DNA of 64,000 nucleotides from positions 1 to 64,000 of the IMG/VR virus record IMGVR_UViG_3300035670_009931. One strand, given 5' to 3'. Source of the DNA: a virus. The first letter of the stretch is position 1, and each line of letters starts with the position of its first letter. Position numbers and translations under genes: made by a program. Below, piece by piece: positions 10,689-39,954 of the stretch. The notes under the pieces were generated by a model, which did not search any database, was not told the DNA's origin, and saw only the letters and a list, made by a program, of their open reading frames with translations.

Positions 10689-10698
10689 AGTTTTTAAA

Positions 10699-13213: not shown

Positions 13214-13228
13214 AGGATTCAGGTACTG

Positions 13229-16436: not shown

Positions 16437-16444
16437 TTTTATCC

Positions 16445-17985: not shown

Positions 17986-18995
17986 ACTAGCATTTCCTTA
18001 AAAAAATCTTTTAAATTGATATTATATTTTTCATGTATTTCAATTATATCTTTATTCAATTCATTTTTGTCTATGTCAATCATAATTTTATAACTGTATG
18101 GACTAAACTGTTTTGGATCATATCCTATTACGCTAGCTCCTAAACTGCTACCAAGAACTATCATTAGATCAGCGTTTTGCATGGCAAAATTTCCAGCCCT
18201 GCTACCTTTTATTCCTATTGCACCTATACTTAGGTTATGTGAATTTGCAGTATAATCTCTTGCACCATAAGTGCTTACATATGGTATGTTATATTTTTCT
18301 ATAAATTGTACAAATTCTTCCACTGTATTACTTTGTCGTATACCATAGCCTGCAATAATAATAGGACGAGTAGACCTTTCTATTGTTTTTTTAATTTTTG
18401 AAACATCATTATTAAATTCGTTATTAAAGCTAGGATGATATGTTCTGTATTTTGATGGCATTTGAGCAGTTTGTATATCACCTGGGATATCTACCCATAC
18501 TGGTCCAGGTCTATCACTTTGTGCAATATGAACTGCATATTGTATTGCATATACAACATCTTCAATGTTGTCAACAAAGCAACTAAATTTAGTCATAGAT
18601 GAATAAGTTTCAACAATATTATGTTCCTGAATTCCATATTTTCTAATATTAACGTTTTTAGTTCTATTAATATAATTGCTACATGTAGATAATCTAACGT
18701 TACCAGATAAAAATAGAACAGGTACACTATCTTGCCATGCATTAAGAACACTGGTGGCACAATTTGTACCAGCGCATCCTGTGGTAGGATTAACAACGGA
18801 AAGTTTTCCAGTAAATTTACTTTCACCTATTGCAGCATGACCAGCACTTTGTTCGTGATGATAACAAATATAGTTTATTTTTCCATTTTTAATAAACCCG
18901 TCATTCAATCCACTTGCGCCACCACCCATTAAACCATGAACATTTCTAATTCCTATATTGTACAGGTAGTCGGCTATCCAATCACATACTCTCAT
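17982..18995 (-). CDS. TPP-dependent enzyme, N-terminal Pyr plus central domains (partner of 17236-17985)
   Basis: Pyr-domain-like N-terminus. The two ORFs together total about 586 aa, the size of an ALS/YerE-type enzyme. Confidence 0.6.
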   Translation of the reverse strand: MRVCDWIADYLYNIGIRNVHGLMGGGASGLNDGFIKNGKINYICYHHEQSAGHAAIGESKFTGKLSVVNPTTGCAGTNCATSVLNAWQDSVPVLFLSGNVRLSTCSNYINRTKNVNIRKYGIQEHNIVETYSSMTKFSCFVDNIEDVVYAIQYAVHIAQSDRPGPVWVDIPGDIQTAQMPSKYRTYHPSFNNEFNNDVSKIKKTIERSTRPIIIAGYGIRQSNTVEEFVQFIEKYNIPYVSTYGARDYTANSHNLSIGAIGIKGSRAGNFAMQNADLMIVLGSSLGASVIGYDPKQFSPYSYKIMIDIDKNELNKDIIEIHEKYNINLKDFFKEMLV

Positions 18996-19008
18996 ATTAT
19001 CTCCGGTT

Positions 19009-20334
19009 TTATAAAAATAAACTCATGAAGTTATCAACTTTTTCTCCTATATATGATATCTGTTCAGGTGTTATCACTGGACTAGTTCCATGGAAAAAAG
19101 TATTTTTCATAACAAAAGTTGCCACTGGAAAATTATTTTTTGCATCTTCTGGATTCATCAAATGACTATATGCTGGTTGTAACATAATATTTCCAGCAAA
19201 ATATGGCCTAGTTTGTATGAGATTTGTTTCAAGATAATCGACCAAATCAAATCTAGAGAATGGCGCATTCTCCCTTATTGTCAAGGGGAACGCAAACCAA
19301 CTAGGATCACTTTTATTTTGTGCTGTCGGTAAATGAAAGAACTCTTCATACTTTTTATAGATATCTAAAAGCAAACTATAATTTCTTCTTCTTAATTGAT
19401 GAATGGTTGGCAACTTATCTATTTGAACTAGACCCATAGCCCCCTGCAATTCTATCGGTTTCAAATTAAATCCAATTTCATCATATACATACTTGTGATC
19501 AAAAATTTCATTTTTCATACAAGGTATCCATTCTGAGAAACGTTTACCGCATGTACCACACTGCAATTTATTTGCTTCTGGTCCAACACAGTAGCAACCT
19601 CGTCCCCATTCTCTAAATGACCTAGCGATAACTTCTAAATCATAAGTTTTGCAAGCAACAAAACCCCCCTCACCCATTGTCATATGATGTGCTGGATAAA
19701 AGCTACAGCTAGCCATTTCACCAAAACTACCTAAAGGTTTGCCATCATATGTGCTACCTAACGCATCACAGCAATCCTCTAGTAAAATTAAATTATACTT
19801 TTTAACCAATTCCATTACTTGATCCATATTTGGTGGATTTCCCAGTACATGAGCAAAAGTTATTACACGTATATTATGTTCTTTAATTAAATCTTCAGCT
19901 TTGGATAAATCTAAATTTAATGTATCTATTTCAATGTCCAAAAATACTGGTTCAAATCCCATTTGTAAAGTTGGGTTCAATGTAGTTGGAAATCCAGCTA
20001 TAGGCATTAAAACTTTAGTTCCTTTTGGTAAGTTATATCCTCGCTTTGATGTCAGGGTTGCCATCATAAGTAGGTTTGAACTAGATCCACTATTAGTTAA
20101 AATACCATGTTCTTTACCAAATTGTTTTGGGAACTCTTTTTCAAATTTTAAACATTTATCTCCCATAACCAACCAACCATCTAACATGGAAGATATAGAA
20201 GATACAAATTCATTTTCATCAAAATATGGACCGGCATAATTTACAAAATCTTTACCTGCTATCCATTTTTTATTTTGATTTTTATTTTTTATATATTCAT
20301 TAATATTTTGTAAAATTTGTTCTTTAGTTATCAT
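19009..20334 (-). CDS. DegT/DnrJ/EryC1-family PMP-dependent sugar 3-dehydrase (DdhC/RfbH E1-like)
   Basis: Fold-type I sugar aminotransferase core. The usual SF(Y/H)PTK lysine is replaced by His (SFYPAHHMT), as in E1 dehydrases. A cysteine cluster (CYCVGPEANKLQCGTCGKRFSEWIPC) could bind Fe-S. Confidence 0.6.
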   Translation of the reverse strand: MITKEQILQNINEYIKNKNQNKKWIAGKDFVNYAGPYFDENEFVSSISSMLDGWLVMGDKCLKFEKEFPKQFGKEHGILTNSGSSSNLLMMATLTSKRGYNLPKGTKVLMPIAGFPTTLNPTLQMGFEPVFLDIEIDTLNLDLSKAEDLIKEHNIRVITFAHVLGNPPNMDQVMELVKKYNLILLEDCCDALGSTYDGKPLGSFGEMASCSFYPAHHMTMGEGGFVACKTYDLEVIARSFREWGRGCYCVGPEANKLQCGTCGKRFSEWIPCMKNEIFDHKYVYDEIGFNLKPIELQGAMGLVQIDKLPTIHQLRRRNYSLLLDIYKKYEEFFHLPTAQNKSDPSWFAFPLTIRENAPFSRFDLVDYLETNLIQTRPYFAGNIMLQPAYSHLMNPEDAKNNFPVATFVMKNTFFHGTSPVITPEQISYIGEKVDNFMSLFL

Positions 20335-21176
20335 TCTTGAATTTGTCCTTTCATAGTATTATACACTACTTTTAAACGATCTCCAAACCTGTCCCATGCA
20401 ACAGTATCTTCTTCATTATTAAGGTTTTGTTGATGCCAAAATTCATCAGTAATATATGCACCGGGATCTGTAGGTTTTCTATCTGCTTGTTGACCAACTA
20501 CTTGTTTAACTGTTTTAAAGAATTCCCAACTCTTAGAGTAATAATGATGTATTCGTAATTTATCATGACTTATTGCACTGCATGGATAATTTAATCCTTG
20601 GGTTATTAATCTACCTTCAACATCATATGTTCCATATTCAGTACCTAAACAATGACCATCTTTTCTTACCCAAATATTACCTGCATTTGGACCTCCCCGT
20701 AAAATTGATTTTATATGATGATTTAGTTTATGATTTAACGGTGCTCTTTTTGTAAAACATTCTGTAACTAAGCTAGGTTCCCAACTTATATGCCCATTAT
20801 TACCAAACATTGTCCAGTAAATACCCAGACAACTCAAACGTAAATTCATGTAATTTACTAAGAAATCTTTAATATTATGGTGTTGTATGGGTACATAGAA
20901 CTCATCTGCATCTGCACTGATTATCCAATCAAATTCTCCACTAGCACGATGCTGAAATACATACTCCCAATACCTATTACCAGCATCATTGCCTATAACT
21001 TGCATGGGTCTTATATCATAAAACTTTGATAATTTTTTTATAATATCAAAACTTGAATCAGTGCTCATATGATCATATACTAGAAATGTATCCACTCCTA
21101 ACATATGATACCATGCAAACCATTCTATTAAATGTCTTGAATTATTTCGTTGTATTAAACTTACTGCAATTTTCAT
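20331..21176 (-). CDS. Glycosyltransferase (GT92/DUF23-like)
   Basis: Pattern HLIEWFAWYHMLGVDTFLVYDHMSTD resembles the GT92 signature. Assignment by recall only. Confidence 0.45.
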   Translation of the reverse strand: MKIAVSLIQRNNSRHLIEWFAWYHMLGVDTFLVYDHMSTDSSFDIIKKLSKFYDIRPMQVIGNDAGNRYWEYVFQHRASGEFDWIISADADEFYVPIQHHNIKDFLVNYMNLRLSCLGIYWTMFGNNGHISWEPSLVTECFTKRAPLNHKLNHHIKSILRGGPNAGNIWVRKDGHCLGTEYGTYDVEGRLITQGLNYPCSAISHDKLRIHHYYSKSWEFFKTVKQVVGQQADRKPTDPGAYITDEFWHQQNLNNEEDTVAWDRFGDRLKVVYNTMKGQIQE

Positions 21177-21179
21177 ATA

Positions 21180-21833
21180 TTATCTTATAATAAATTGTGA
21201 ATAATAATCAAATGCTTTTAATCTAAAATTTAGATCAGTTGCTGGCCATTGTATTACAAAATCACCTAGTGACCAATCACCAACTGTTCCCAATTTATCA
21301 ATAAGTGGCTCCGGATAACGACCTCTATACAATGAATAATTGTATGAATTCATTACCTTTTGAGGAACTAATTTGACTAAATCATTTTTATATTTTTCAT
21401 ATGTATCTTTCATAATACCCTGTTCACCTTCCCAATTGGTATATGTCGGTAAAGTTTCAGCTATCATGTTTAGATAATCTCTACCTTCGGGCGAATTTCT
21501 AAGTAGAAAACTATCAGAGTTGATACCATTAAAATCTGATGCAATAATTAAATGATAATTTGTATCAGCTATATCTTCTAATTTTATTTTAAAATTGGTG
21601 ATCATTAAATCACCACCTGTCCACCATATCCAAGAATCATTTTCAATCTTACTAATAACATCTTGTAAAATTTGTATCTTAGCAATTTGGGCTGAACGCA
21701 TATCATTCCACGTAATCAATCTTAAATCATGATTGTATCCATGTAAATTACAATATGGAACTTTATTATTGTGCCAAGTTTTATCCATTAATGGCTGATA
21801 TGTACTATCATAATAACTAACTAATGTAAACAT
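21180..21833 (-). CDS. Hypothetical protein, possible glycosyltransferase
   Basis: 217-aa ORF located inside the glycan cluster. Confidence 0.35.
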   Translation of the reverse strand: MFTLVSYYDSTYQPLMDKTWHNNKVPYCNLHGYNHDLRLITWNDMRSAQIAKIQILQDVISKIENDSWIWWTGGDLMITNFKIKLEDIADTNYHLIIASDFNGINSDSFLLRNSPEGRDYLNMIAETLPTYTNWEGEQGIMKDTYEKYKNDLVKLVPQKVMNSYNYSLYRGRYPEPLIDKLGTVGDWSLGDFVIQWPATDLNFRLKAFDYYSQFIIR

Positions 21834-21836
21834 CTA

Positions 21837-22766
21837 TTAACCTATTGTTGTTATAGTTTTCTTCTCAGTGGAATGGTCTGTTTTCTTTATTAGATATTCA
21901 ACAATTTGAGAGGCTATATTTTCATTTACTGTATTACTAAAATATGTATTAGCGTTGTACTCACCTTTACCAGTTAAACAATCAGTTGCTCGAAAATTAA
22001 ATGAAAGAAATGTTTTACTTGAATCTAACAAATTTTCTTTAGTGTGACAGAAACTAAATGGTCCGCTATTTTTTCCAACAATTAGTTTTGCATATTTACT
22101 TAGAAAAGATATTTGATTTAGATTTCCTTCATTTGCAGAAAACAAATCATCAGTATATGTAATATTTGGTCTGTTAATGTTTAGTTTATGTGCAACTAAA
22201 AATTCATGATCTTTGAATTTATCTGCCATATCTTTAATGGTGTTTTCCATTATGCCCATTGCACTTTGACCACTTTGTTGAATACCATTACAAAATAAAA
22301 CAATTGGTTTCTGTGATTTTTCTTTCAAATACTTATGACAAGCATCCAAATCAAATTTAGAATAATCAGTTTCAGGTAAGTAATAACTAAAATCATTATC
22401 AAACTTTATATCAAGAATCTCAAAGTATTCTCGCCATGCTGAATGTAAAAGCGGATAATTAGCATGATGACCGGGAGCTAGATGCTTTCCGATCCATGAT
22501 CCTATCCATGTACTAATAAATAATGTGCCACTATCTTCATGAAAAATATATGGCAATTCTTTTTTTACATCTCTAAATGGTATTTGATATGTTCTAATAA
22601 ACCTACAATCAACATCTGCGATAATGCTTTCATGCTTATCGTGGGCATAAGAAAAACCAACGTCATCTAATTGACGTATGATATCTTTTACGAATCCTTT
22701 GGTGACAAAACAGTCACCATTTTTTTCGTAATTGTAAAATATAATATTGTTAAGAGTCGTATACAT
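21837..22766 (-). CDS. Hypothetical protein (glycan-cluster member)
   Basis: 309-aa ORF. Confidence 0.4.
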   Translation of the reverse strand: MYTTLNNIIFYNYEKNGDCFVTKGFVKDIIRQLDDVGFSYAHDKHESIIADVDCRFIRTYQIPFRDVKKELPYIFHEDSGTLFISTWIGSWIGKHLAPGHHANYPLLHSAWREYFEILDIKFDNDFSYYLPETDYSKFDLDACHKYLKEKSQKPIVLFCNGIQQSGQSAMGIMENTIKDMADKFKDHEFLVAHKLNINRPNITYTDDLFSANEGNLNQISFLSKYAKLIVGKNSGPFSFCHTKENLLDSSKTFLSFNFRATDCLTGKGEYNANTYFSNTVNENIASQIVEYLIKKTDHSTEKKTITTIG

Positions 22767-22768
22767 AA

Positions 22769-24067
22769 TTATTGTTTTGTTATTAATTTAATTAAATTAT
22801 TGGCAATTTCTTCAATCACGTTTACTGTTACTGAATTACCAAATAGATCAAAAATTTCTTCTGTTGTTAAGTGATTCGTTTTATATGTTAAAGGAAATCC
22901 AAATAATTTTTTAAGCTCGGAATGACTAAGTTTTCTTAGACCAGTATTTTCAATTACCCCCAAACGAGTTGAATCCGTAGCAACTACAGTTGGAATAATA
23001 TTATTATCATCAATTATTTTACTAAATTCAAAACTTAATTTACCAGTTGTTAATGTGTATCCCATTGGTAAATCAGTCCTTTTTATTTTTGTTTTAACAT
23101 TATTAATTATTTTATAGTCTTTTAAATATTCTTGTTTTAGATAACCTTTTTCAGTTAGTGCATTTAAATCATTTTCTAAATTTTCATAATCCATAAATGT
23201 TTTAATTTGATTTAAAGAAAGAGGAATCCCATCGAACCAAGATGTACCATTTTCTACGGACCATTTTTTATTTCTTCTTTTTACTATTAAAGAATTAATT
23301 AGTTCTTTTTGTTTTGGTGTGATTGATCCTTTTATACCCAAATCCCAACTATGAATATTATTATCTCCACCTCTTTTGTCATTAATTGATTTACCAGCTA
23401 ATAAATTTAGATTATTAAATGATGATTTTAAAAGAAAATTTAATTTACTATTTGGTGTTTCTAAGTTATAATCTCTAATATCTTTAAAAGTAACAGCTTT
23501 AAAATTTGTACTAAAATCAAATATATTTTGTAAATTTAGATTTAAATCTTTTCTAACTCCAGCAATATAAATTCTTTTTCTCCCTTGAGCTAGCCCAAAA
23601 TTTTTAGAATTTAATAATTTCCATGAAAAATCATATCCTATTTGATCAAGTATTGCCAATATCGTAGATAAAGTATTTCCTTTATTATGGTTTATTAAGC
23701 CTTCTACATTTTCCAAAATAAAACATTTTGGTTTTATATCATTGAGGATTCTTGCAACTTCAAAAAATAATGTACCCCTAGTGTCTTCAAACCCCAAACG
23801 TTTTCCAGCAGATGAAAACGCTTGGCAAGGGAATCCAGCCAATAAAAAATCAAATGAACCTAATTCAGATGTATTAATTTTTCTAACATCTTCAATATTT
23901 GATTTTTCAAAATTAAGTTGGTATGTTTCTATTGCTGATTTTTTTATATCAGATGATAGTATACATTCACCAATTAAATTATTTCTTGACAGTGCTTGTT
24001 GAAGTCCTAGTCTAAATCCACCTATTCCACAAAATAAATCTATAAATTTTATTTTTTCATTAATCAT
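22769..24067 (-). CDS. dcm: DNA (cytosine-5)-methyltransferase
   Basis: Motif I FCGIGG, motif IV GFPCQAFS, motif VI ENV and motif X GNSVTV are all present. Confidence 0.8.
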   Translation of the reverse strand: MINEKIKFIDLFCGIGGFRLGLQQALSRNNLIGECILSSDIKKSAIETYQLNFEKSNIEDVRKINTSELGSFDFLLAGFPCQAFSSAGKRLGFEDTRGTLFFEVARILNDIKPKCFILENVEGLINHNKGNTLSTILAILDQIGYDFSWKLLNSKNFGLAQGRKRIYIAGVRKDLNLNLQNIFDFSTNFKAVTFKDIRDYNLETPNSKLNFLLKSSFNNLNLLAGKSINDKRGGDNNIHSWDLGIKGSITPKQKELINSLIVKRRNKKWSVENGTSWFDGIPLSLNQIKTFMDYENLENDLNALTEKGYLKQEYLKDYKIINNVKTKIKRTDLPMGYTLTTGKLSFEFSKIIDDNNIIPTVVATDSTRLGVIENTGLRKLSHSELKKLFGFPLTYKTNHLTTEEIFDLFGNSVTVNVIEEIANNLIKLITKQ

Positions 24068-24095
24068 TATAATTTCCAGATTTATTTAATAAATT

Positions 24096-25319
24096 TTATT
24101 TTGAAATTAGCTTAAAATACGGACAAGGTAAAACCAAAGTACCACCACCATTTAGATATTCTTGTTCTCTCATTTCAAATTCGTTAATAAAATGCCAAGG
24201 CAGTACCAAAGCATATTCCGGTTTTGCTTTTCGCATTTCTTCCTCGCTAACTATTGGTATCATTGTTCCAACAGTTTTTAGTCCAAACTTATATGGACTT
24301 CTTTCAGCAATGGCATCTATACAAGTACTATCTAAACCAAAGTGTTGTAATAATGTATTACCTTTTGTACTTGCACCATATCCATAAATTTTCTTATTTT
24401 CTTTTTTGGCCTTATTAACAAAATCAACTACTTGAGTTTTTAATAGTTCTAATTTTTTACCAAAATCTTCCCATACCTCAACATCACGAATATTACATAC
24501 ATTCTTCTCATATGCTAAAATACTTTCGATTCTAACATTGCATACATCTCTTAGTGGTGCTGTTCCAAAACTATTAATATTGGCGTTTTTCTTTTGAATA
24601 TAAATTCTAAAGCTACCACCATTTGTATCATTTAAACTACAATCTACTATCTTGAATCCATGTGATTCAAATAAGTTTTTTATACTGGTTAAATCATAAT
24701 AATAAACATGTTCATGACATATATTATCGAATGCTAATTGTTTAACCATTAGTGGTGTATAGCTCATTTGTAAAACTAATAATCCATCATTATCCAATAC
24801 TTTATACAAATCTTTAATAAATGGATTAGGATCATCTAAATCATAGAACATCGCAATGCAGGTAATTACTTTTGCGGTGTCTGTTTTTGATGTTATTTTT
24901 TGCCAAGCTTTTAATGAAAAATAGTCTTGTGCAACCGTTGCTACTTTACTACTTTCAGCATAGTATGAATTATCACATGGATCTATACCATATTTTTTCA
25001 TAGTATCTGGTACAGATTTTAACAAAGTACCATCATTACAGGCTATATCTAGCCACTTATCACCTGGATTTAATTTTACTCTTGAACTTATTTCTGATAC
25101 TATACTTTGTAGTTCTTTAGTCATACTAGCGTTAATACCACTTCTGTACCAGTATTGCCCCCACATTGATTCAGCGGGAGCAACTTCTTTTAGTCTTACA
25201 GCCCCAATTTTTTTGTCTAGGTAAAGATCTAAACTATATTTTTTTCTTTTCTTCATGTCGTCTTTTGATTTAATAAAATCACTGACGTAATACTTCCCCA
25301 AAGCTAATACTTTTTTCAT
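24096..25319 (-). CDS. SAM-dependent methyltransferase (sugar C-methyltransferase-like architecture)
   Basis: Class I MTase motif (LDIACNDG) plus a C-terminal domain of the kind found in NDP-sugar C-methyltransferases. Confidence 0.5.
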   Translation of the reverse strand: MKKVLALGKYYVSDFIKSKDDMKKRKKYSLDLYLDKKIGAVRLKEVAPAESMWGQYWYRSGINASMTKELQSIVSEISSRVKLNPGDKWLDIACNDGTLLKSVPDTMKKYGIDPCDNSYYAESSKVATVAQDYFSLKAWQKITSKTDTAKVITCIAMFYDLDDPNPFIKDLYKVLDNDGLLVLQMSYTPLMVKQLAFDNICHEHVYYYDLTSIKNLFESHGFKIVDCSLNDTNGGSFRIYIQKKNANINSFGTAPLRDVCNVRIESILAYEKNVCNIRDVEVWEDFGKKLELLKTQVVDFVNKAKKENKKIYGYGASTKGNTLLQHFGLDSTCIDAIAERSPYKFGLKTVGTMIPIVSEEEMRKAKPEYALVLPWHFINEFEMREQEYLNGGGTLVLPCPYFKLISK

Positions 25320-25339
25320 TTTTTTCCTTGTTATTGGTT

Positions 25340-26008
25340 TTATGATATTTGAAATAAATCGTACACTAGAAAATATCTAGGGTCACTATTTTTTAAACTT
25401 TTTTCTTTGATAGTATTGATAATATTCCTATCAACTAAATCTGGATGAACCCACCAATCTTCGTATGGTGAAATTTGATTGGGTATATAACATGTTAGTA
25501 CATCCCCTGCAACTAGTTCATAACCTAAAGTAGATAAAATTTTTCTACTTTCATTTCTAGCATAATCACCTTCAGCATAAAAATCAGTTTCATATGTTAT
25601 AGTTCTAAATTTAAATTTATCAAATGGAATTCTTTTTAATGCTGATAATGTGTTAATACTTGGTTCAATATCTAATTGAAGATAATCAATTATATTTCTT
25701 GTAGGAAAATAATACGATAATAATTTTTCATAATCTGTATTTAATGCATCAGTAGCTAAAAAAGTTGTATTTGGTCTGTGAAATTTCCACTCATTTGCAT
25801 ATTCCTCAAATAAATCAATTGAAACACCTGACCAATTGAATACAGATTCTAAATTATAAGTATTATTATTATTGATTGGTAAGTGACATCCTATTTCCAA
25901 AAAAGTTCCATTTTTCATACCATTAGTTGCAGTCATTACAAATATATCCTGCATATCCAATGAATATGATTTTTTAACTAATTCACTGTTGTTAAAGTTA
26001 TATTTCAT
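25340..26008 (-). CDS. Hypothetical protein, possible FkbM-type methyltransferase
   Basis: 222 aa. Contains a G-x-G-like LEIGCH segment. Weak. Confidence 0.3.
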   Translation of the reverse strand: MKYNFNNSELVKKSYSLDMQDIFVMTATNGMKNGTFLEIGCHLPINNNNTYNLESVFNWSGVSIDLFEEYANEWKFHRPNTTFLATDALNTDYEKLLSYYFPTRNIIDYLQLDIEPSINTLSALKRIPFDKFKFRTITYETDFYAEGDYARNESRKILSTLGYELVAGDVLTCYIPNQISPYEDWWVHPDLVDRNIINTIKEKSLKNSDPRYFLVYDLFQIS

Positions 26009-26024
26009 ATATTAGTTGTTTAAT

Positions 26025-26414
26025 TTAATTAGTGTGTGACTTTTCTTCAACTATTTCAGAATTATATTTTAAATTGACATTTTTCTTTATAGTGCTACGT
26101 AAATCGTTTGAAATATATATTTGTTTTGCAATTTTTGCAACTTTAATATAATCAGTCGTATAGTATAGTTCTAGTCCTATTTTACGTATTTCATTTTCTA
26201 AATCCCAAATTTTTAAATTTACTTCATAAAGTTCATCATAAAAATCTACAATATCTGGATCTAAAGACAATGAATCATATGTATTTTTTAAACTCATATA
26301 TTCATATCTTACATTTTTTAATTTTTCATCATCAGTTATTTTACTAGATTTGATTTCAAGAATAGTAAGCTTATCTACTAATTCCCCTATGCTTACTGGT
26401 ATACTAATATTCAT
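26025..26414 (-). CDS. Hypothetical protein
   Basis: 129-aa ORF. Confidence 0.4.
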   Translation of the reverse strand: MNISIPVSIGELVDKLTILEIKSSKITDDEKLKNVRYEYMSLKNTYDSLSLDPDIVDFYDELYEVNLKIWDLENEIRKIGLELYYTTDYIKVAKIAKQIYISNDLRSTIKKNVNLKYNSEIVEEKSHTN

Positions 26415-26415
26415 A

Positions 26416-27423
26416 TTAAATACTCTTTTTCATCTCAGTAGAACACATATCATTTACAATATCATACAGATTCATTTTTGGTTCCCATCCTAAAACTTCT
26501 TTAGCTTTAGAATAATCTCCTAATAATGTATTGACATCGGCTGGTCTATAAAATTTCGGATCTATTTCTATTAAAGTTTTTCCAGAATTGCTATCTATAC
26601 CACGTTCATTTAAATCAGTACCAACCCACTCTAATTTTATGCCATGCCACTGTGCAGTAAGATCACAAAATTCTCTTACTGAATATTGTTTACCAGTGGC
26701 TAACACAAAGTCATCTGGACTATGATGTTGTAGTATCATCCATATACCTTCAACAAAATCCTTTGCATGACCCCAATCTCTTTTAGCGTCAATGTTACCA
26801 AGTTTAATGGAAGATTGTTTACCGGCTATGATATCATTAAATCCTTTTGTAATTTTTCTTGTTACAAAAGCTTCGCCACGTCTAGGACTTTCATGATTAT
26901 AAAGAATACCAGTACTTGCAAAAAGATTATAGCTTTCTCTGTAATTTACAGTAATCCAATGTCCAAATAATTTAGAAACACCGTATGGGCTTCTTGGATA
27001 AAATGGAGTGCTTTCATTTTGAGGAATAGTTTGAACTAATCCAAAGAGTTCACTGGTAGATGCTTGATAAAATTTTATAGTTTTATACTGTTTTATAGCT
27101 TCAAGTAATCTTAAAACACCTAAAGCATCAGTTTCAGCCGTATATTCAGGTACTTCGAAGCTTACATGAACATGGCTTTGTGCAGCCAAATTATAAACCT
27201 CATCGGGACAAACTTCTTCTATGATATTCCTGATGTTTAAATTATCAGTTAAATCACCATAATGAAGTTTTATCTGATCACGTATATGAGTGATATTTGG
27301 TATTACTTCATAACTAGAATTTCGTCTAATTAATCCGTGAACTTTATAGCCTTTTGATAGTAATAGTTCTGCTAGATAAGAACCATCTTGTCCGGATATA
27401 CCGGTAATTAATGCAGTTTTCAT
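26416..27423 (-). CDS. gmd: GDP-mannose 4,6-dehydratase
   Basis: N-terminus [34 protein letters not shown] and a catalytic YxxxK (YGVSK) match Gmd. Confidence 0.85.
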
Positions 27424-27546: not shown

Positions 27547-30063
27547 TTATTGTCCTTCTGATACATTCTGATTCATCTTGTGCAACTTATCAAGTTCATC
27601 AGTAAATGCTTTTCCTGCTAGTTTTATATTACCAGTATCTTTCATAACGTTATATGCAACATCAATTACATCTAACATTTGTTCATTTGATGGAGTCCAT
27701 CCACTAACAGCATTTTTCAAAAATCGCATGATTGATGGAAGCGTTGTTATAAGATATTGTTTATATGCTTCTGGATCTTTTTTTGGATCACCTGTATTTT
27801 CTGTAAAACTTTCACTTGTCTTTTTTTTACTGTTGTCGTCTATATCAGAATCTGGTACAATTTTTGCAGGTATAGATTTTATATCTGCTATTTTATGTGC
27901 CCAAAATCTGTGATGACCATCTAATACTTGATAACCTTTTCTATATTTGCGTACTAAAATAGCGGGGAGTTTATCCCCTTTCTTTAGTTTTGTTACCATT
28001 CTTTTAATCTTAGTTTTGCTTTCCGTTTGATGCATCTTTTTACTAGGTTCAAAAGTAGTAAGTTTATCAATCGGTATATTAATTGTTGGTAACTTATCAA
28101 ATCCGGTATCATCTACATCTGCACCATAATATTCAGGATCGGTGTATAGTTTTATTTTACCTTCCGCCACACCTTGCTTCAATCTTGCACTTTGTAATTC
28201 ACCACTAGTAATATACTTTACCGGTAATGATTTTATGTTTGAGTCAACCGCTTTAGCCAATCTATGAAGACCATCAATTACAGTCAATTTACCATTGTTG
28301 CTTTTTGTAATCACAACAGGAACTGATATATCGGCATTTTTTAATCTGGTTATATCCGGTTCATCATATGCTAATACCCATGCCAATTTACTTACTGAAC
28401 ATTGTTTAGTTGGCTTAGTTTCTGCCATAGCCAAAACTTTATCAAAATCATATTCTACTCCGTCATGGGTAATTGATCCGCCCTCTTTATATGAGCCTTC
28501 CGTCAAACCTTTTTGTTTTGATTTCTTTGCTTTATCTAAATAATATTTTCGTAGTTCTAAATCTTTTTTTGTTGGTGTGCGAACTAAATCAAGATGTCTA
28601 TCTACCGGTTCTTCTATTATATTTTCATCGGGAACATGAATTGATTTTATGTGAGGTAGACTTGAAAATTCGTTATTATTACCGCCCGGTTCCCACATAT
28701 CTTTACCATTCTTGTCATATCTAGGCAATTTATGTAAATAGACATTTTCACCGTGTCTTAGTTTACCATTAAATAAAATCAATTGATCTTTTTGGTCGAA
28801 CATACCGGTATCAGATCCATCGGTTGTCATTCCCATTTTTATTGCAGTATTCTTATCAGCAGTTGCATATATAGCAAATCTATTACTACCTTCTTCTCCA
28901 CCAGTATCATGTGCTTGTTTAGGAACTAATACGTTAATTCTATGTTTTGAACCATGCCACAAGTATTTTTGTTTATCAGCTTGTTCACTTACTTTTTTTT
29001 TACAACTACCAGGTTTTCCTGCTGGAACACCACGTACTCTGGTATAACCGGGCCAACATTTTAATTCGTCTAACTTATCAGATTCATTGTTAGCTATCAT
29101 TTTTTCCAGCATATTGGAAGGAGTATCTTCATCACCTGCAATATATTCTATAAAATTTTCATGACGATCTTCTAATCCTTTTAGACCAGAATTTATTGTT
29201 CTTGTAACTTCAGTAGTATTTTTAAAATCAGAAACTTTTGGTTTTACACGTGCTCCCCAGTACCACAAAGCAATTTGTGCTGCAATATCTGGATCTTCTG
29301 CTAATTGTGGATTGTTTATTAAATCTTTGCCAATAGCTTTACCTGCAATTCGATAATTATATCTACCTGTTAATTGTATAAATCCACGACCTTTAAATCG
29401 TATACCATCACCAATTTTTGTGTTACCCAATCTTTTTGCTCTGTCAGGTGAATATTTTGGGTCATATCTCTTGAAATAATTTTTACCACCCTGTTCTGCT
29501 AAACGTGAAAAATCTCTAGTTTCATGGGCACATTGTGCCATAAATTGTGCAAGTTCATATCCACTTAAACCTGCTTTTTTTGCATAATTCATCAAGAATT
29601 TTTCTCTTGGGCTACTAGTTATATAATTAACAGTTGGTTGTTTAGTAGCAACTGGTTTAGCTTGTTGAGTAGCTGGTGCAGTATTAGGTGCAGTAGCTGT
29701 TGCAACCGGTTGATTTTGTTTTGGACCTGTCAATGCTTGTTTGGCGGTCATCACACCAGTAGAACCAAGTGCCACTGCACCAGCTAATCCTAAACCAAAT
29801 AATTGGTCACGCCAACCTTCTTCTAAATCATCTGAATAAAATTCATTTAATTTATTCTGTGAAACAAGTTCATTATATTTTTTTCTTGATATATACCAAG
29901 TTCCAGTTGAGGATTTTTTAAATCCAAGATCAGTCAATTGACGATCACTATAACTGCCTTTTAGTTGGCCGGGTTTTAAAAATACAATATCTTTGTATTT
30001 GTTATCTTCTGTAATATTAAATTCTGAAAAACGCATCTTGTATTTATAATTTTTTAAATACAA
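27547..30063 (-). CDS. Multidomain protein: GH19 lysozyme/chitinase-like domain plus two ParB-like nuclease (ParBc) domains
   Basis: GH19 block FKGRGFIQLTGRYNY. Two ParBc-like motifs near the C-terminus (VIDGLHRLAKAV; VLDGHHRFWAHKI). 838 aa. Confidence 0.55.
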   Translation of the reverse strand: MYLKNYKYKMRFSEFNITEDNKYKDIVFLKPGQLKGSYSDRQLTDLGFKKSSTGTWYISRKKYNELVSQNKLNEFYSDDLEEGWRDQLFGLGLAGAVALGSTGVMTAKQALTGPKQNQPVATATAPNTAPATQQAKPVATKQPTVNYITSSPREKFLMNYAKKAGLSGYELAQFMAQCAHETRDFSRLAEQGGKNYFKRYDPKYSPDRAKRLGNTKIGDGIRFKGRGFIQLTGRYNYRIAGKAIGKDLINNPQLAEDPDIAAQIALWYWGARVKPKVSDFKNTTEVTRTINSGLKGLEDRHENFIEYIAGDEDTPSNMLEKMIANNESDKLDELKCWPGYTRVRGVPAGKPGSCKKKVSEQADKQKYLWHGSKHRINVLVPKQAHDTGGEEGSNRFAIYATADKNTAIKMGMTTDGSDTGMFDQKDQLILFNGKLRHGENVYLHKLPRYDKNGKDMWEPGGNNNEFSSLPHIKSIHVPDENIIEEPVDRHLDLVRTPTKKDLELRKYYLDKAKKSKQKGLTEGSYKEGGSITHDGVEYDFDKVLAMAETKPTKQCSVSKLAWVLAYDEPDITRLKNADISVPVVITKSNNGKLTVIDGLHRLAKAVDSNIKSLPVKYITSGELQSARLKQGVAEGKIKLYTDPEYYGADVDDTGFDKLPTINIPIDKLTTFEPSKKMHQTESKTKIKRMVTKLKKGDKLPAILVRKYRKGYQVLDGHHRFWAHKIADIKSIPAKIVPDSDIDDNSKKKTSESFTENTGDPKKDPEAYKQYLITTLPSIMRFLKNAVSGWTPSNEQMLDVIDVAYNVMKDTGNIKLAGKAFTDELDKLHKMNQNVSEGQ

Positions 30064-30107
30064 AATAAAAAAGGCTACCTAAGTAGCCTCTTTTAAGTTA
30101 CATAATT

Positions 30108-30557
30108 TTAGAACTTATAACGAACCCCAGTACTTAGATTAACACCATTAAAGGTATTAACTCTAGATTGGCCAAATTGGTAAGTCATACCAACTACTCC
30201 ATCTAGACGACCAACAAGAGGAGTTGATACTTCTAGTCCTACATTCATTGCATATCCATCTACGCTAGTCTTATTGTCAAGATAAGAAACCCCTACAGTT
30301 GGAGTAAATTGGACACTGCCAACTTTAGCAAGATCATATCCACCAGTGAGGGTAAAACGATTTTGATCATCAGCCCCTACTGAACTACGACGATACTCTA
30401 CACCAGCAGAAACGAGACCAACACTATGTGATAGTGTTACTTCACCGTAGTTGCGGTTTACGTCACTGAAATCACGACCGACGTTTACACCTAGTTCAAG
30501 GGCAGATGCAGTAATAGCAGTAACAGCTAGCATAGTTGCAATAAAAATTTTCTTCAT
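30108..30557 (-). CDS. Outer-membrane beta-barrel protein (OmpA-N/OmpW-like)
   Basis: Signal peptide, alternating amphipathic beta-strands, C-terminal aromatic (…VRYKF). GC content is elevated. Confidence 0.55.
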   Translation of the reverse strand: MKKIFIATMLAVTAITASALELGVNVGRDFSDVNRNYGEVTLSHSVGLVSAGVEYRRSSVGADDQNRFTLTGGYDLAKVGSVQFTPTVGVSYLDNKTSVDGYAMNVGLEVSTPLVGRLDGVVGMTYQFGQSRVNTFNGVNLSTGVRYKF

Positions 30558-30753
30558 ATGTTTTCCTTAGTTAAAACGTTATTGTACACGAGTTGAAGAA
30601 GCTTGTAAAGTCATTTTTTGTCACAGTTTTGTAATAACAAAAATATATAATATTTGTAAATATAAATTATATGAATATGATTTATCGTAACTTATATAAA
30701 AAATAAATCGACCGCAATGATTGAGTGGTGCTGGAATTCGTAACCAGCTTAAT

Positions 30754-30780
30754 AGATCCGAAAGGATCTATTTTTATTTA
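30754..30780 (+). terminator. Small hairpin (AGATCC-GAAA-GGATCT) plus T-run with no upstream plus-strand CDS; possible end of a short ncRNA
   Basis: GNRA-like loop with a 6-bp stem, followed by ATTTTTATTT. Confidence 0.25.
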
Positions 30781-30791
30781 AAGGATGATAT

Positions 30792-31571
30792 ATGTCTAAA
30801 AAAACTTATAGAACCATAGCAATTAGTGATGTTCATTTAGGAACTAAAGATTGCAAAGCAGAACAGTTAGTCAATTTTCTAAAGAATAACTCATGTGAAC
30901 ATCTGTATCTTGTTGGTGATATAATTGATGGCTGGAAAATTAAAAGAAATAAACTCAGATGGAAACAAAGCCATACAAATGTTATTCGTAGTATACTAGG
31001 TCACGCAAAACGTGGAACAAATATTGTATATATTGCAGGAAATCATGATGAATTTATAAGACCATTTTTAACATATAAATTTAGTTTTGGGATGATTGAG
31101 ATAAAAAACCAACATGAACATATTGGTCTTGATGGAAAACACTATTTAATTGTACATGGAGATCTATTCGATGGTATTACAAGAATAGCACCGTGGATTA
31201 GTTTTTTAGGAGACCATGCATATGACATAGTTCTCAGTATAAATTCTAAATTCAATTGGATCAGAAGAAAACTTGGATTTGGGTATTGGAGCTTAAGTAA
31301 ATTTTTAAAACACAAAGTAAAACGAGCAGTAGATTTTATATTTCAATTTGAACAAAACATTTCATTATATTGTAAAAAACGTGGGTATGATGGAATAATT
31401 TGTGGCCATATTCATAAAGCAGAAATAAAAATTATAGATAAAATAACTTATATGAATTCTGGTGATTGGGTAGAAAGCTGTACTGCTTTAGTAGAAGATT
31501 GGAATGGAAAATGGTTTATTATAACTTGGGTTAAGGAAGATCATGTGGATTCTAATACTTCTAGCAATTAA
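30792..31571 (+). CDS. LpxH-like metallophosphoesterase
   Basis: DVHLG, GDIIDGW, GNHDE, HGD and GHIH blocks occur in the order typical of LpxH/MPP enzymes. Confidence 0.6.
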   Translation: MSKKTYRTIAISDVHLGTKDCKAEQLVNFLKNNSCEHLYLVGDIIDGWKIKRNKLRWKQSHTNVIRSILGHAKRGTNIVYIAGNHDEFIRPFLTYKFSFGMIEIKNQHEHIGLDGKHYLIVHGDLFDGITRIAPWISFLGDHAYDIVLSINSKFNWIRRKLGFGYWSLSKFLKHKVKRAVDFIFQFEQNISLYCKKRGYDGIICGHIHKAEIKIIDKITYMNSGDWVESCTALVEDWNGKWFIITWVKEDHVDSNTSSN

Positions 31572-31636
31572 TATTAATAATCCAAGAGATATTCCTGGAA
31601 AAATAAGTTTAGAATTTAATTCTTTAGAAGCATGTA

Positions 31637-31665
31637 TTGAAAGTGTAAATAGCTTACAATATAAT
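31637..31665 (+). promoter_or_regulatory. Sigma70-type promoter TTGAAA-N17-TATAAT upstream of the GT1 gene
   Basis: TTGAAAgtgtaaatagcttacaaTATAAT, 33 nt upstream of the ATG at 31698. Confidence 0.45.
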
Positions 31666-31697
31666 CTCAAATTTAAGAACTATAGGATTGAAGCTCA

Positions 31698-32705
31698 ATG
31701 TATAAAAAAATATTAATAATCACCGATAATTTACAAAATCAAATAAATGGAGTAGTTACAACATATACTAATTTAGCGAAATTGGCAAAATCTAAAGGAT
31801 ATGAATTAAAATTTATAGACCCAAGCAATTTTAAACATTATTCTTTGCCTAGTTATCCTGAAATAAAATTAAGCCTACCATTTAATATAAAGAAAAAAAT
31901 TAAAGAAATTGATCCTGACTATATTCATATAGCAACGGAGGGACCATTGGGTTTTGCAGCTAGGTTATATCTAGATAAGCAAAATATACATTATAACACT
32001 AGTTATCATACTAAGTTACCTGAAGCATTAAAAAAACTTTTAGGTATACCAGAATTTTTAACATGGAAGTATATCAGATGGTTTCATAAACATAGTGGTA
32101 AAGTTTTAACTACTACATTATCTATGCGTGATGAACTATTGAATAATGGATTAAAAACGGAAATCATACCATGGACTAGAGGGGTAGATCGTGAAATATT
32201 TAAACCAATAAAAACAAATAGAGAAGAAAAAATTATATTATTATGTGTAAGTAGAATTAGTAAAGAAAAAAATTTGGATGCTTTTTGTAGTTTAGATTAT
32301 CCAAATTCCAGAAAAATAATTGTTGGTGATGGCCCATATAGAAAACATCTAGAAGAAAAGTATAAAGACGTTGAGTTTACGGGATTTAAAACTGGAAAAG
32401 AATTAGCAAAATATTATCAAATGGCCGATGTTTTTGTTTTTCCAAGTACTTGGGATACATTTGGTATAGTTATGATAGAGTCCTTAGCTTGTGGAACGCC
32501 AGTAGCAGCTTTTCCAGTTACTGGTCCACGTGATATCATCGTACAAAATGTAGATGGATACTTGTCTTACAATTTAGATTATGCAATTTCTTGTTGTTTG
32601 AAAATAGATAGAAATGTAGTTGCAAAAAGTAGCGAAAAATGGACATGGGAATCTGCTTGGGAAATATTTGAAAAAAATTTAATACAATTAAAATTTAATA
32701 ATTGA
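31698..32705 (+). CDS. Glycosyltransferase family 1 (GT4-like)
   Basis: GT-B C-terminal motif (FVFPSTWDTFGIVMIESLACGTPV). Confidence 0.7.
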   Translation: MYKKILIITDNLQNQINGVVTTYTNLAKLAKSKGYELKFIDPSNFKHYSLPSYPEIKLSLPFNIKKKIKEIDPDYIHIATEGPLGFAARLYLDKQNIHYNTSYHTKLPEALKKLLGIPEFLTWKYIRWFHKHSGKVLTTTLSMRDELLNNGLKTEIIPWTRGVDREIFKPIKTNREEKIILLCVSRISKEKNLDAFCSLDYPNSRKIIVGDGPYRKHLEEKYKDVEFTGFKTGKELAKYYQMADVFVFPSTWDTFGIVMIESLACGTPVAAFPVTGPRDIIVQNVDGYLSYNLDYAISCCLKIDRNVVAKSSEKWTWESAWEIFEKNLIQLKFNN

Positions 32706-32715
32706 CTATAAAAAA

Positions 32716-33114
32716 TTAATCTTCAAAAGTAACAGTAAATTGACGGCCTTTATAAATGAATGTAACAACTTCTCCACGCTTAATAGTTACAGGAACGTTG
32801 TTGCATTTTTGAGTCCATTCATATTTACGCTGATCTTCCCCGATCCTATTACCAACACCTGCACCTACAATAGCACCGATAACAGTTGCAGCATCACGAC
32901 CGGATCCATTACCAACCTGATTTCCAATAATACCACCAGCTACCCCACCAATAACTGTACCCAATGTACTATTATTTGATTCTACTCTTTCCTGATAGCA
33001 TTGTTGTTGATAAATTGTTTGATATCTGGGTTGCACAGAGATAACTCTAGCGATATCTTCATACCCATATGAAAATGTACTTACAAAAAGTAAAGCTAGT
33101 GGCAGTTTACGCAT
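32716..33114 (-). CDS. Glycine-zipper (SlyB/17 kDa-antigen-like) exported protein
   Basis: Signal peptide plus GxxxG repeats (GGVAGGIIGNQVGNGSG...GAIVGAGVG). Confidence 0.55.
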   Translation of the reverse strand: MRKLPLALLFVSTFSYGYEDIARVISVQPRYQTIYQQQCYQERVESNNSTLGTVIGGVAGGIIGNQVGNGSGRDAATVIGAIVGAGVGNRIGEDQRKYEWTQKCNNVPVTIKRGEVVTFIYKGRQFTVTFED

Positions 33115-37668: not shown

Positions 37669-38238
37669 TTATCTCCATTTTGGTCCTTCAAACCATGCAA
37701 CTAAACTGTGTCTTGTACCATATGTAACAGGGGTAACTTCATGTGGAATAAATGAAGGGAAAAATATAACAGAGCCCTGTTGTCTAATATCAGATGCCAA
37801 AGGTTCCTCAAACCCATCTAGATGGAATTTCATTTCACCACCTAGATAATCAGCAGGATTTGATAATTGAACTGAGCAACTTAATTTTCTATGATGATTT
37901 GGATCATTATTAATCCAAAATACATCATGGTGTTTCTTATATTCACCTCTTTCCGAGGCATCATATTCCCCTATTTGAATAAAATTTAACCTTGTTACAT
38001 GAATATTAAAAAAAGCTTGGTTTGCCTCTAATGCCATTAACCAAAGATCATTAAAAACATCTTTAAAATCAGGATTATCTTTTTGTATAAATTTTACTCG
38101 ACTTTTACGTATACTGACATCTACAACTGAATTACCAACTACAGCGGTTTCCCAATTATATTTTTCAGACTTTTTGATAATACTTTGACAGTACTCTGGA
38201 GTCCATTTACTTTTAAAGTAACACCATAGTCCATTCAT
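37669..38238 (-). CDS. 2OG-Fe(II) oxygenase (prolyl-4-hydroxylase-like)
   Basis: HxD...H...R pattern (KKHHDV ... PHEVTPVTYGTRHSLVAWF). Confidence 0.6.
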   Translation of the reverse strand: MNGLWCYFKSKWTPEYCQSIIKKSEKYNWETAVVGNSVVDVSIRKSRVKFIQKDNPDFKDVFNDLWLMALEANQAFFNIHVTRLNFIQIGEYDASERGEYKKHHDVFWINNDPNHHRKLSCSVQLSNPADYLGGEMKFHLDGFEEPLASDIRQQGSVIFFPSFIPHEVTPVTYGTRHSLVAWFEGPKWR

Positions 38239-38774
38239 AACTTACAACTCAAACAATCTTGCTCATCATCATCTGGAATGACTATTTCATTGACAACATT
38301 ACTAGATGATGTTAATGTTGTTTTAGAACCCAATTTGTTAATTAAACTATAGTAGAAAGTTTTTAATCCCCATTTATATCCTAACATTAGATTTTTTGCA
38401 ATTAATGTACTCGGAACTTTCCCGTCTTTAAAATGTGCAGGATTATAAAACGTATTTGTACTAATACTTTGATCTATATATGCAGCAAGTACCGCAGCAG
38501 TTTTTAGATATTCAACACAATCTTTTTGATCCCACATTAGTTGATACCTATTTTTTAATTTTTTATATTCGGGGACAACTTGAACAAAACTTCCAGCCTT
38601 TGATTCTTTAACTGAAATCAATTCCATAGGAATTTCAATTCCATTAGTTGAATTTAAAACTACAGATGAGTTGTGAGATACACAACCATTTGGTAACGCA
38701 TATGCACCACTTTTTGTAGTGATATCATATGTTGGAACTACTTCAGTATGCCTATTAATTTTTTTTATTTTCAT
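38235..38774 (-). CDS. nrdA: nrdA C-terminal fragment: split-intein C-half (35 aa) fused to the RNR alpha C-extein
   Basis: MKIKKINRHTEVVPTYDITTKSGAYALPNGCVSHN carries intein blocks F/G (YDITT...NGCVSHN). It is followed by SSVVLNSTNGIEIP...IDQSISTNTFYNP...GYKWGLKTFYY...CLSCKL, which aligns with the NrdA C-terminus including the CxxC tail. It has its own GGAG RBS and ATG. Confidence 0.75.
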   Translation of the reverse strand: MKIKKINRHTEVVPTYDITTKSGAYALPNGCVSHNSSVVLNSTNGIEIPMELISVKESKAGSFVQVVPEYKKLKNRYQLMWDQKDCVEYLKTAAVLAAYIDQSISTNTFYNPAHFKDGKVPSTLIAKNLMLGYKWGLKTFYYSLINKLGSKTTLTSSSNVVNEIVIPDDDEQDCLSCKL

Positions 38775-39954
38775 TTATTTTCTCCATCAATTCATCGAGT
38801 GTTAAGGAACATTTCATACGCTTACTACAATTTTCTTCAACTAAAATCCATTCTAAATTTAATGGATTTCCTATAATTTCTGGGTTTATCCCGTCTAGAT
38901 AACCCTGCATTTTTGAATACATGTGATCGAGATGATATTCCCCTTTATGACGTCCTCGTTTACCCGGACATTCTGGTATTTTAGATAACGACTGTCTAGT
39001 GAATCTATCAACAGAAGCTGAGTAACCTTTAAATCCTTGATGTAATTCTTCTGCTAATTTACCGTATTCACGAAAACATGATGATTTCACCAGTCTTCTC
39101 TCATTATAGATACTTTCACCATTTTTACCATACTTATCCATACAAAATTTTAAACTTGAACCATCTTTTCTAGTGTTTATATTTTCTAGAATATTTTTTA
39201 TTTCTTCTTTGGTAAGACCCCTAGATTCCCAATATTCTTTGTGTAGACCAGAATACAACTTTTGAGTATCAGATATCATTTTTCTAGACTCATCCAAAGA
39301 ATAACCTCTTTTAATCCAAAAATCTACTGTACAACGATTAGCCTCTCTTTTGTATTTTTGGAATCCATCGATGCTATCATCCCAATAGTCAATATAATTT
39401 TTATGAAATCTATGAATAAATTTATGCTTTTCTCTACCCACAGTGTCGCCATATATTTCTATACACCTACTCAATGACAAGGATGTTTCATATTTCAACT
39501 TCTTTATTTTTTCAATAACAGCATCATCCGAAAGTCCTTTAGATACCCAATAAGATGGATCATATATATTAGGTTTATTCGTCAAATATTCTTTTTTGTG
39601 GGACTCCCAATTATTACCGTATTTAACTTTAAAGTATTCATCGCTATTACTCACTGCTTTATGTTTTTTTCTATAATTTAACCACTCGGTGAATCTAGAT
39701 GGATCGTACTCATCATCACTCAACCCGCGAACATATAACAAGAAATTTTTATCATTGATGAATCTAAAAATAGCATCAATAATATTTTTTCTGTCGTTTA
39801 ATGACAATCCATAAAATTTAGATATATCTTCGTCTGATGCAGCAGAAAGAAGAATATCCAATTCTTCTTTCGTTTTTACTTTATTCAATATTTTTTTAGG
39901 TTGGGATCTCGGTTTCCCCAAAATCATTAACTTCAACGACATCATCTCCTTCAT
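38755..39954 (-). mobile_element. Free-standing homing-endonuclease-like ORF (HNH-like C-terminus) inserted between the two nrdA halves
   Basis: 399 aa, in a third reading frame. It overlaps both nrdA fragments. The C-terminus HLDHMYS...GNPLNLEW...ENCSKRMK is HNH-like. Confidence 0.55.

Follow-up and report, generated by a model that had tools for sequence, protein, structure and literature searches.

Polyvalent proteins, which carry at least two disparate activities and are linked to a network of shared domains, have been described in phages and conjugative elements (Iyer, Burroughs, Anand, de Souza and Aravind 2017, PMC5512222). Fusions of a lysozyme with ParB were described there, and co-injection with the DNA was predicted. 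In phage T4, the first 10 residues of a protein are enough for head targeting, and the gp21 prohead protease cuts after L/I-X-E. The capsid-targeting sequence (CTS) of a T4 internal protein is MKTYQEFIAE (PMC8442874), and CTS residues 8 and 10 govern processing (PMC9026906). T4 Alt, an ADP-ribosyltransferase (ART), is packaged and trimmed at both ends, and the CTS was proposed as the route by which T4-like phages load diverse cargo. Polyvalent proteins, lysozyme-ParB fusions and the CTS/gp21 system are therefore already known. Here we analyse a stretch of 64,000 nucleotides of viral DNA (IMG/VR virus record IMGVR_UViG_3300035670_009931, positions 1 to 64,000; called here the window), in which one minus-strand gene encodes a chain with a GH19 lysozyme-like domain, a predicted ART-fold domain and two domains of the ParB/sulfiredoxin (Srx) fold. 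With somewhat better than even confidence, we read its product as a head-packaged, prohead-protease-processed and injected effector polyprotein.

Gene and modules of the chain

The open reading frame (ORF) 27547..30063 was confirmed on the minus strand, with 838 codons counted from a TTG. This TTG, at 30063, falls inside the T-tract of a hairpin resembling an intrinsic terminator (30066..30095, minus strand; 13 pairs with a T-tail in a hairpin scan), which separates the upstream outer-membrane-protein-like gene from the polyprotein gene. The first ATG lies 27 nt further downstream, at 30036. Since, in addition, the cluster member P0358 is 829 aa long and its N-terminus, like that of other cluster members, is MRFSEF, the true start is probably ATG 30036. 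The corrected gene would then be 27547..30036, with 829 aa and a stop codon at 27547-27549. Residue positions are nevertheless given throughout in the 838-aa numbering, from the TTG. The full protein has a mass of ~93 kDa.

Module boundaries were set where BLAST alignments to 238 database relatives begin or end; all modules lie on the minus strand. At E<=1, Pfam returned nothing for residues 1-168, 279-669 and 738-838. A long N-terminal region had been noted in the original prediction. It is present, but it consists of further modules (the leader described below, module A1 and a hydrophobic segment) and is not filler. Module A1 (residues 20-82, 29818..30006) is a small domain to which no function was assigned. 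It ends on LEE|G and is also found ahead of other modules in the relatives P0224, P0192 and P0158. Module A2 (residues 83-110, 29734..29817) is made of GW and a Gly/Ala-rich hydrophobic segment, LFGLGLAGAVALGSTGVMTA, similar to a signal-anchor-release (SAR) or transmembrane segment. The segment covers residues 86-108, with a Kyte-Doolittle peak of 1.55 at residue 88, and is kept in P0002, P0004, P0068 and P0226. In the relatives L-x-E-G-W always precedes it, and 'xLxEGW' is counted 37 times in the family. A low-complexity linker joins the hydrophobic segment to the GH19 domain.

Module B (residues ~151-308, 29140..29613) is the GH19 muramidase/chitinase-type catalytic domain, and the lysozyme-like assignment made earlier was borne out by profile search. 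Pfam Glyco_hydro_19 (PF00182) matches residues 169-278 at E=2.5e-17 (63.9 bits vs a cutoff of 25.5), and the PHROG endolysin family phrog_181 matches the region at 8.8e-39. The region can be aligned to the solved endolysins 7r6s, 9ms7 and 4ok7 with the signature 'AHE(T/S)...LxE', and the catalytic Glu pair, E181 (AHET) and E190 (LAEQ), is conserved in alignment with 7r6s, 9ms7 and 9eoi. Membership of the domain in GH19 is solid, and catalysis is predicted.

Two ParB-like nuclease domains had also been proposed, on the motifs DGLHR and DGHHR. Both domains are present. The second, module F (residues 635-757, 27793..28161; DGHHR at 715-719, nt 27907-27921), matches Pfam ParB_N at E=8e-6 with a score exactly at the gathering threshold (26.3 bits), the ParB-like phrog_1033 at 1e-12 and the ParB structure 7bnk at 8e-4, and has 102 homologous segments in relatives. 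The first, module E (residues 523-634, 28162..28497; DGLHR at 597-601, nt 28261-28275), which ends on VAE|G, is weaker by single-sequence search (SbnI N-domain, 6e-7). An hhalign comparison of E with F nevertheless gave 95.2% probability and an E-value of 2.6e-8, with ~28% mutual identity, and the module E profile searched against the PDB gave the SbnI ParB/Srx domain at 7e-6. The ParB/Srx identity of module E is confirmed by these profile methods, and both modules have the fold and its conserved phosphate-pocket Arg.

The word 'nuclease', by contrast, is only a historical Pfam label for these domains. Among solved proteins, those closest to them, which use ATP or CTP as enzymes or switches, comprise sulfiredoxin, the serine kinases SbnI and SerK, and the CTP-binding KorB/ParB. 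The ParB CTP motif GERRxRA (Box II) is not kept: where 7bnk has GERRWRA, the aligned GHHRFWA (within DGHHRFWA) retains only the G, one R and the A. The score for TIGR00180 is 25.8, far under its cutoff of 58.45, and profile scans found no helix-turn-helix (HTH) or ParA family in the protein or its neighbouring genes. Without the GERRxRA motif, an HTH or a ParA partner, a canonical ParB partition function was ruled out.

Between GH19 and the ParB/Srx pair lie two modules that the original prediction had not seen. Module C (residues 325-360, 28984..29091) is an ultra-conserved mini-module with two Cys, LDELKCWPGYTRVRGVPAGKPGSCKKKVSE|Q, also written LDELKCWPGYTRVRGVPAGKPGSCKKK. It is found in 47 of 360 family proteins, at 60-90% identity, across multi-domain proteins that are otherwise unrelated. 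There are two spacing variants, (Q)LDELKCWPGYTRVxGVPAGxPGSCKKKTNE and CWKGYHKEGNKKMFGKTYPNC, each with two Cys and flanking x-x-E sites. Module D (residues 361-522, 28498..28983), which ends on LTE|G, is predicted with moderate confidence to adopt the split beta-sheet fold of ARTs. Its invariant residues are H370 (LWHGS, strand 1), Y399 (AIYAT, strand 2) and E465 (NEFSS, a later strand), which are candidates for an H-Y-E triad. No match to module D was obtained in Pfam (E<=1), NCBIfam or PDB sequences, and its profile gave only chance ribosomal hits against the PDB. Foldseek against BFVD gave one significant match, to an unnamed protein, and weak matches only to 'polyvalent' and PARP entries. 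The module does not belong to the Pfam ART-PolyVal family: hhalign against the ART-PolyVal-bearing relative P0005 returned a probability of 0.3%. An exhaustive search of 1.84 billion representatives yielded only 121 relatives of module D, from stand-alone proteins of ~150 aa up to chains of 1622 aa. The chain closes with module G (residues 758-838, 27550..27792), which has no assigned function and ends on ...NVSE|GQ. It is also found at the N-terminus of P0121 (74% identity), P0076 and P0138.

Shuffled relatives, leader and junction sites

The domain combination had been called unusual. This is true of the exact architecture, which is limited to one 90%-identity cluster (P0001, P0353) with nine members from several metagenomes. 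The theme, however, is not rare: lysozyme and ParB were already joined in PMC5512222, and every pairwise combination of modules is found again among the relatives. Each module is met again in hundreds of proteins from marine phages, in any order (F-D, D-E, G-E-GNAT, GH19 at either end), and modules also exist as small stand-alone proteins of 150-190 aa. The other cargo found beside these modules includes GNAT, SET, ART-PolyVal, ADPrib_exo_Tox, dCMP deaminase, Pol-beta NTase, NUDIX and M48 peptidase domains; in P0005, the Pfam 'ART in polyvalent proteins' domain stands behind the same GH19. P0133 has a module E that is 99% identical to this one, while the rest of the protein differs, a sign that cassettes were exchanged recently. 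As far as sequences can tell, such shuffling with such cargo is the signature of polyvalent proteins, and the chain analysed here unites three predicted enzyme classes. PADLOC found no defence-family match.

The loci of the relatives hold a clamp loader, PhoH, polB and T4 DsbA, and neighbouring genes there bear similar leaders (MILRELFE, MFLRELIVE). The genes for P0184 (locus L006), P0133 (L007) and P0027 (L003) share one variable locus of marine T4-like contigs, on the downstream side of DnaJ-ClpB; in two of them PhoH is also upstream. In L006 the ParB-type protein adjoins a separate GH19 protein of 210 aa, so that the same cargo exists fused and unfused.

The polyprotein itself starts with MRFSEFNITE (residues 10-19, 30007..30036, minus strand), a candidate CTS that ends on an I-x-E cleavage-type site and contains both T4 CTS determinants, I8 and E10. 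A start of the type M[RK]AxEF[IL]xE (consensus MRAxEFIxE; in a looser form M[RK]xxE[FL]..[LIV]xE) was observed in 96 of the 329 family proteins that begin with Met, irrespective of the module that follows. The protein contains eight [LIVM]-x-E-[GASQND] sites, six of which are at module boundaries or termini: ITE|D (17-19), LEE|G (80-82), VSE|Q (358-360), LTE|G (520-522), VAE|G (632-634) and VSE|GQ (834-836). The form [LIVM]xEG occurs 4 times in the protein where 0.68 are expected (p ~0.0025), and 683 times in the whole family against 209 expected, mostly as GVAEG (junction form QGVAE|G). Among relatives, the module end has a site no more than 35 residues away in 73/89 cases for D, 6/8 for E and 92/98 for F, and the module start has one at such a distance in 86/90, 7/7 and 94/97 cases, respectively; random windows hold a site in 30-36% of cases. 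Cleavage at the six boundary and terminal sites would give fragments of 7-31 kDa, all basic (isoelectric point 8.0-9.6).

Two further gene products in the window have CTS-like starts. The first (53075-53881, minus strand) is an HExxH zincin-like protein that starts with MRYRELVE|N and matches the metallo-protease family phrog_87 at 2e-5; the T4 late-promoter consensus TATAAATA lies 5 nt before its ATG. The other (47460-47891, minus strand) is a Q/T-rich protein of 143 aa that starts with MKIKELVYIRE. These two proteins may also be cargo targeted to the head, and the zincin-like one may serve as a processing peptidase.

Some relatives carry hints of an association with the virion. The C-terminus of PA5oct gp140 is 38.6% identical to module E, and the protein is annotated 'structural protein, ESI-MS/MS'. 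In the two Kyanoviridae phages examined, GH19 lies inside proteins of 839 aa and 1565 aa, the latter annotated as a virion protein.

Proposed packaging and injection, and the alternatives

An injected virion protein that opens the cell wall and acts inside the cell was one of the two possibilities raised by the original prediction. We favour it, on account of the leader, the junctions, the polyvalent family and the PA5oct and Kyanoviridae proteins, although without the 'nuclease' label. The leader would act like the CTS of T4 internal proteins and bring the precursor into the prohead core, where a T4-type prohead protease would remove it and cut at ITE|D, LEE|G, VSE|Q, LTE|G, VAE|G and VSE|GQ. 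The basic fragments would stay in the head and be ejected with the DNA. Once cut, the GH19 fragment would bear the Gly/Ala-rich membrane segment at its N-terminus, and during entry it would attack peptidoglycan locally. Like T4 Alt, the ART-fold fragment would be an NAD+-using modifier of a host protein or nucleic acid, and the two DGxHR fragments may be NTP-binding enzymes (NTPase, kinase or nickase) directed against host or competing DNA or defence factors.

Several observations weigh against this scheme. The leader is one residue longer than the family consensus (MRFSEFNITE vs MRAxEFIxE), and its match to the T4 CTS spans only ~5 residues. Most linkers have Val at P3, whereas T4 gp21 prefers Leu/Ile, and the F/G boundary lacks a clean site. 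The two remaining sites (LAEQ and LAED) lie inside GH19 and would need protection by folding; site enrichment at the ends of GH19 modules in relatives is weak (9/18 and 27/66, vs 21% of random windows). The conserved linkers might be recombination joints instead of cleavage sites, or both. There is no prohead protease, capsid or scaffold gene within the 64-kb window, and PHROG/Pfam scans of ~25 other window proteins gave no head or protease genes. The polyprotein gene is outside any head module, between genes for small envelope proteins and a sugar-nucleotide cluster, and the T4-like character of the phage is itself deduced from its ribonucleotide reductase (RNR), a Kyanoviridae-type virion protein and the loci of the relatives. 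The PA5oct mass-spectrometry list also holds a recombination nuclease, and perhaps is not strictly structural. Finally, the TATAAATA box at 30041..30048 (minus strand), 4 nt 5' of ATG 30036, is suggestive only: the window holds 9 copies where 16 are expected by chance, so that a late-promoter role is without statistical support. Eight of these nine copies are on the coding strand and several are directly 5' of ORF starts (4728, 30041, 46823, 53887), a distribution that fits a T4-type late promoter counter-selected elsewhere.

Other explanations differ in where the protein would work. It could be a virion-associated peptidoglycan hydrolase that stays unprocessed, as a structural protein of the tail, baseplate or ejectosome, with GH19 as the working part and the other domains as accessory passengers. 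The Kyanoviridae GH19 domains, which are part of large proteins and adjoin baseplate genes in S-B68, go in this direction, as do the Acinetobacter relatives P0083-86, which join GH19 to a tape-measure domain. We consider this unlikely: Pfam and PHROG detected no tail, baseplate or tape-measure domain in the protein, the leader and junction motifs would be left unexplained, and the modules also stand alone as proteins of 150-190 aa. Rather improbable, too, is a non-packaged cytoplasmic multi-enzyme acting on phage or host DNA and nucleotides, with the ParB/Srx domains as nickase, partition-like binders or small-molecule kinases. A GH19 domain with intact catalytic residues has no substrate in the cytoplasm, no HTH or ParA partner was found, and the leader and linker pattern would again have no explanation; these points outweigh the position of the gene beside RNR, nucleotide-metabolism and sugar-nucleotide genes and the presence of the metabolite kinases SbnI and SerK among the closest solved relatives.

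The composition of residues 86-108 brings to mind a SAR or membrane-tethered endolysin, whose Gly/Ala-rich segment would export GH19 to the periplasm late in infection; the top PHROG match is an 'endolysin', and no other lysin was noticed in the window. SAR endolysins, however, have this transmembrane segment at the extreme N-terminus. Here it begins 77 residues past the ATG, and it comes to the N-terminus of the lysin only after the predicted LEE|G cut, so that the precursor itself does not have the SAR arrangement. Export would also drag ~530 residues of cytoplasmic-type domains (ART fold, ParB/Srx) into the periplasm, relatives replace those domains by GNAT, SET and deaminase, and no holin or spanin was seen among the neighbouring genes, which makes a lysis endolysin quite improbable. 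The second possibility in the original prediction was a nuclease with a peptidoglycan-binding module, that is, a GH19 domain that is catalytically dead and serves to bind the cell wall. The historical 'ParB-like nuclease' label and the nicking of DNA by some ParB/Srx proteins (reviewed in PMC5512222) are in its favour. We give it almost no credence, because both catalytic glutamates and the surrounding signature are conserved in alignment with active endolysins, and no evidence of nuclease chemistry was found here.

Beyond this single protein, we tentatively propose, at somewhat less than an even chance, that marine T4-like myoviruses possess an unrecognised delivery system. In it, a CTS-type leader would be followed by interchangeable enzyme cassettes separated by QGVAE|G sites, and one gene would give rise to several injected enzymes: here a membrane-anchoring GH19 lysin, a new family of NAD+-using ART-fold enzymes and two DGxHR NTP-dependent modifiers, which would not be nucleases. 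The start codon, the ART-fold domain, the Cys mini-module, the hydrophobic segment, the leader and the linkers had all been overlooked by the original prediction. What appears new are polyproteins tagged by a leader and delimited by protease sites, with no peptidase domain of their own, and the large marine family they form, together with the ART-fold family and the CWPGY..GSC mini-module.

If true, this proposal joins two separate ideas, polyvalent proteins of the Aravind type and the T4 capsid-targeting/prohead-protease system, and explains how large multi-enzyme proteins without their own peptidase domain are dismantled into working units. Abundant marine myoviruses would then inject varied and fast-shuffled enzymes (ART-like, ParB/Srx, GNAT, SET, deaminase, lysin) at the start of infection. 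The new ART-fold family, the CWPGY..GSC mini-module and the DGxHR ParB/Srx cassettes are three conserved modules that offer targets for biochemistry, and the natural grammar of leader and linkers could be reused to package foreign proteins in phage heads.

Genomic setting and comparison with known systems

The window has ~31% GC and nearly all its genes on one strand. It contains a class I RNR that is fractured, together with an RNR beta subunit, and also a DNA ligase, an exonuclease, tail fibres with collagen repeats, baseplate-wedge-type domains and cyanophage-style auxiliary genes, and one of its virion proteins is common to Kyanoviridae and phage HMO-2011. These features point to a large, uncultured marine myovirus-like phage as the source. 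By megablast, 24 kb of the window had no match in INPHARED, so that its DNA is not close to that of any cultured phage, and tblastn with the ligase and ClpX did not sharpen the taxonomy.

Upstream of the polyprotein gene, a small island (30108-33114) has reversed strand and GC skew. It holds envelope-related genes carried by the phage: an LpxH-like metallophosphatase (30792-31571, plus strand) and a GT4 glycosyltransferase (31698-32705, plus strand), flanked by two small signal-peptide proteins, one putatively beta-barrel or outer-membrane-protein-like (30108-30557), the other Gly-zipper/17-kDa-antigen-like (32716-33114). On the other side lies a 12-kb sugar-nucleotide/glycan cluster (15492-27423, minus strand) with GDP-mannose 4,6-dehydratase, epimerases, a DegT-type aminotransferase, a thiamine-pyrophosphate enzyme split over two ORFs, GT34 and GT92 glycosyltransferases, methyltransferases and a C5 DNA methylase (22769-24067). 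Translations from 2000-14700 (minus strand), read by eye, resemble heme oxygenase, PebS/PcyA-like bilin reductase, small heat-shock protein, TROVE/Ro-like protein, GMP reductase, rubrerythrin, 2-oxoglutarate-Fe(II) oxygenase, an SPFH/band-7 protein and ClpX.

The RNR alpha gene (38235-42151, minus strand) is fractured. ORF 39896-42151 stops in the N-part of an intein after ...APVESC; it is followed by a free-standing HNH-like endonuclease ORF (38755-39954), and in ORF 38235-38774 the C-part of the intein (...VSHN|S) comes first, ahead of the RNR C-terminus. The arrangement resembles a split intein whose halves are separated by a homing endonuclease gene. Elsewhere, a minus-strand gene at 50068-53196, in a local GC peak (45% vs ~31%), encodes a low-complexity protein of 1042 aa, rich in Ala, Gly, Thr and Pro, with no Pfam or PHROG match and with two C-terminal copies of a ~70-aa repeat (GFNFT.xQKxWL...PNIQDPYI...PPVSYFKDPxDQAxAKRxGFP). 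Besides a normal tRNA-Tyr (84-167), ARAGORN called at 518-592 (minus strand) a tRNA with a four-base anticodon (ggac) that has weak Rfam tRNA support (31.6 bits vs a threshold of 29). This call may represent a tRNA of the frameshift-suppressor kind, or else be an artefact.

Compared with known systems, the DGxHR domains share with SbnI/SerK, sulfiredoxin and KorB/ParB the same Gly-x-x-Arg phosphate-binding element at a strand/helix junction, and the 'IDGVHR' of SbnI matches their motif. They differ from these proteins in standing in tandem, in having no C-terminal kinase lobes such as those of SbnI and SerK, in the lack of an HTH, a dimerisation domain and a ParA partner, and in the loss of GERRxRA. 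The GH19 module has the catalytic core and Glu pair of phage endolysins and virion lysins (SPN1S 4ok7, 7r6s, PWe2 9ms7, the Kyanoviridae proteins), with 38-46% identity to phage GH19 domains. Here, in contrast, it is one part of a multi-enzyme chain of 93 kDa, in which a leader, a small domain and a SAR-like segment precede it.

With the polyvalent proteins of PMC5512222 the chain shares the mixture of peptidoglycan hydrolase, ART-fold and ParB/Srx domains in one polypeptide and the extensive shuffling. In our case the lysozyme is a GH19, the ParB domains are of the DGxHR type and the ART-fold domain escapes the ART-PolyVal model. The DdrB-like ParB domains of polyvalent proteins are defined in PMC5512222 by an Asp or Asn closing strand 2 and by an additional helix with a conserved Tyr. 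For processing, PMC5512222 proposes a zincin metallopeptidase, which is absent from this protein, where [LIV]-x-E junctions are found instead. When searched by term, the text of PMC5512222 does not mention a capsid-targeting leader and contains 'prohead' once; a full-text literature search for CTS in cyanophages returned solely the T4 review.

The T4 internal proteins IPI/II/III and Alt have the same leader of ~10 aa ending in I-x-E (MKTYQEFIAE, here MRFSEFNITE) and the same kind of basic cargo, including an ART-fold enzyme (Alt). Alt is cut at both ends, and a C-terminal trim (VSE|GQ) is predicted here as well. Alt belongs to the R-S-E clade, whereas module D has H/Y/E candidate residues. The main difference is in organisation: T4 cargo consists of single-domain products of separate genes, while here 6-7 modules are concatenated, with internal sites, in one polyprotein.

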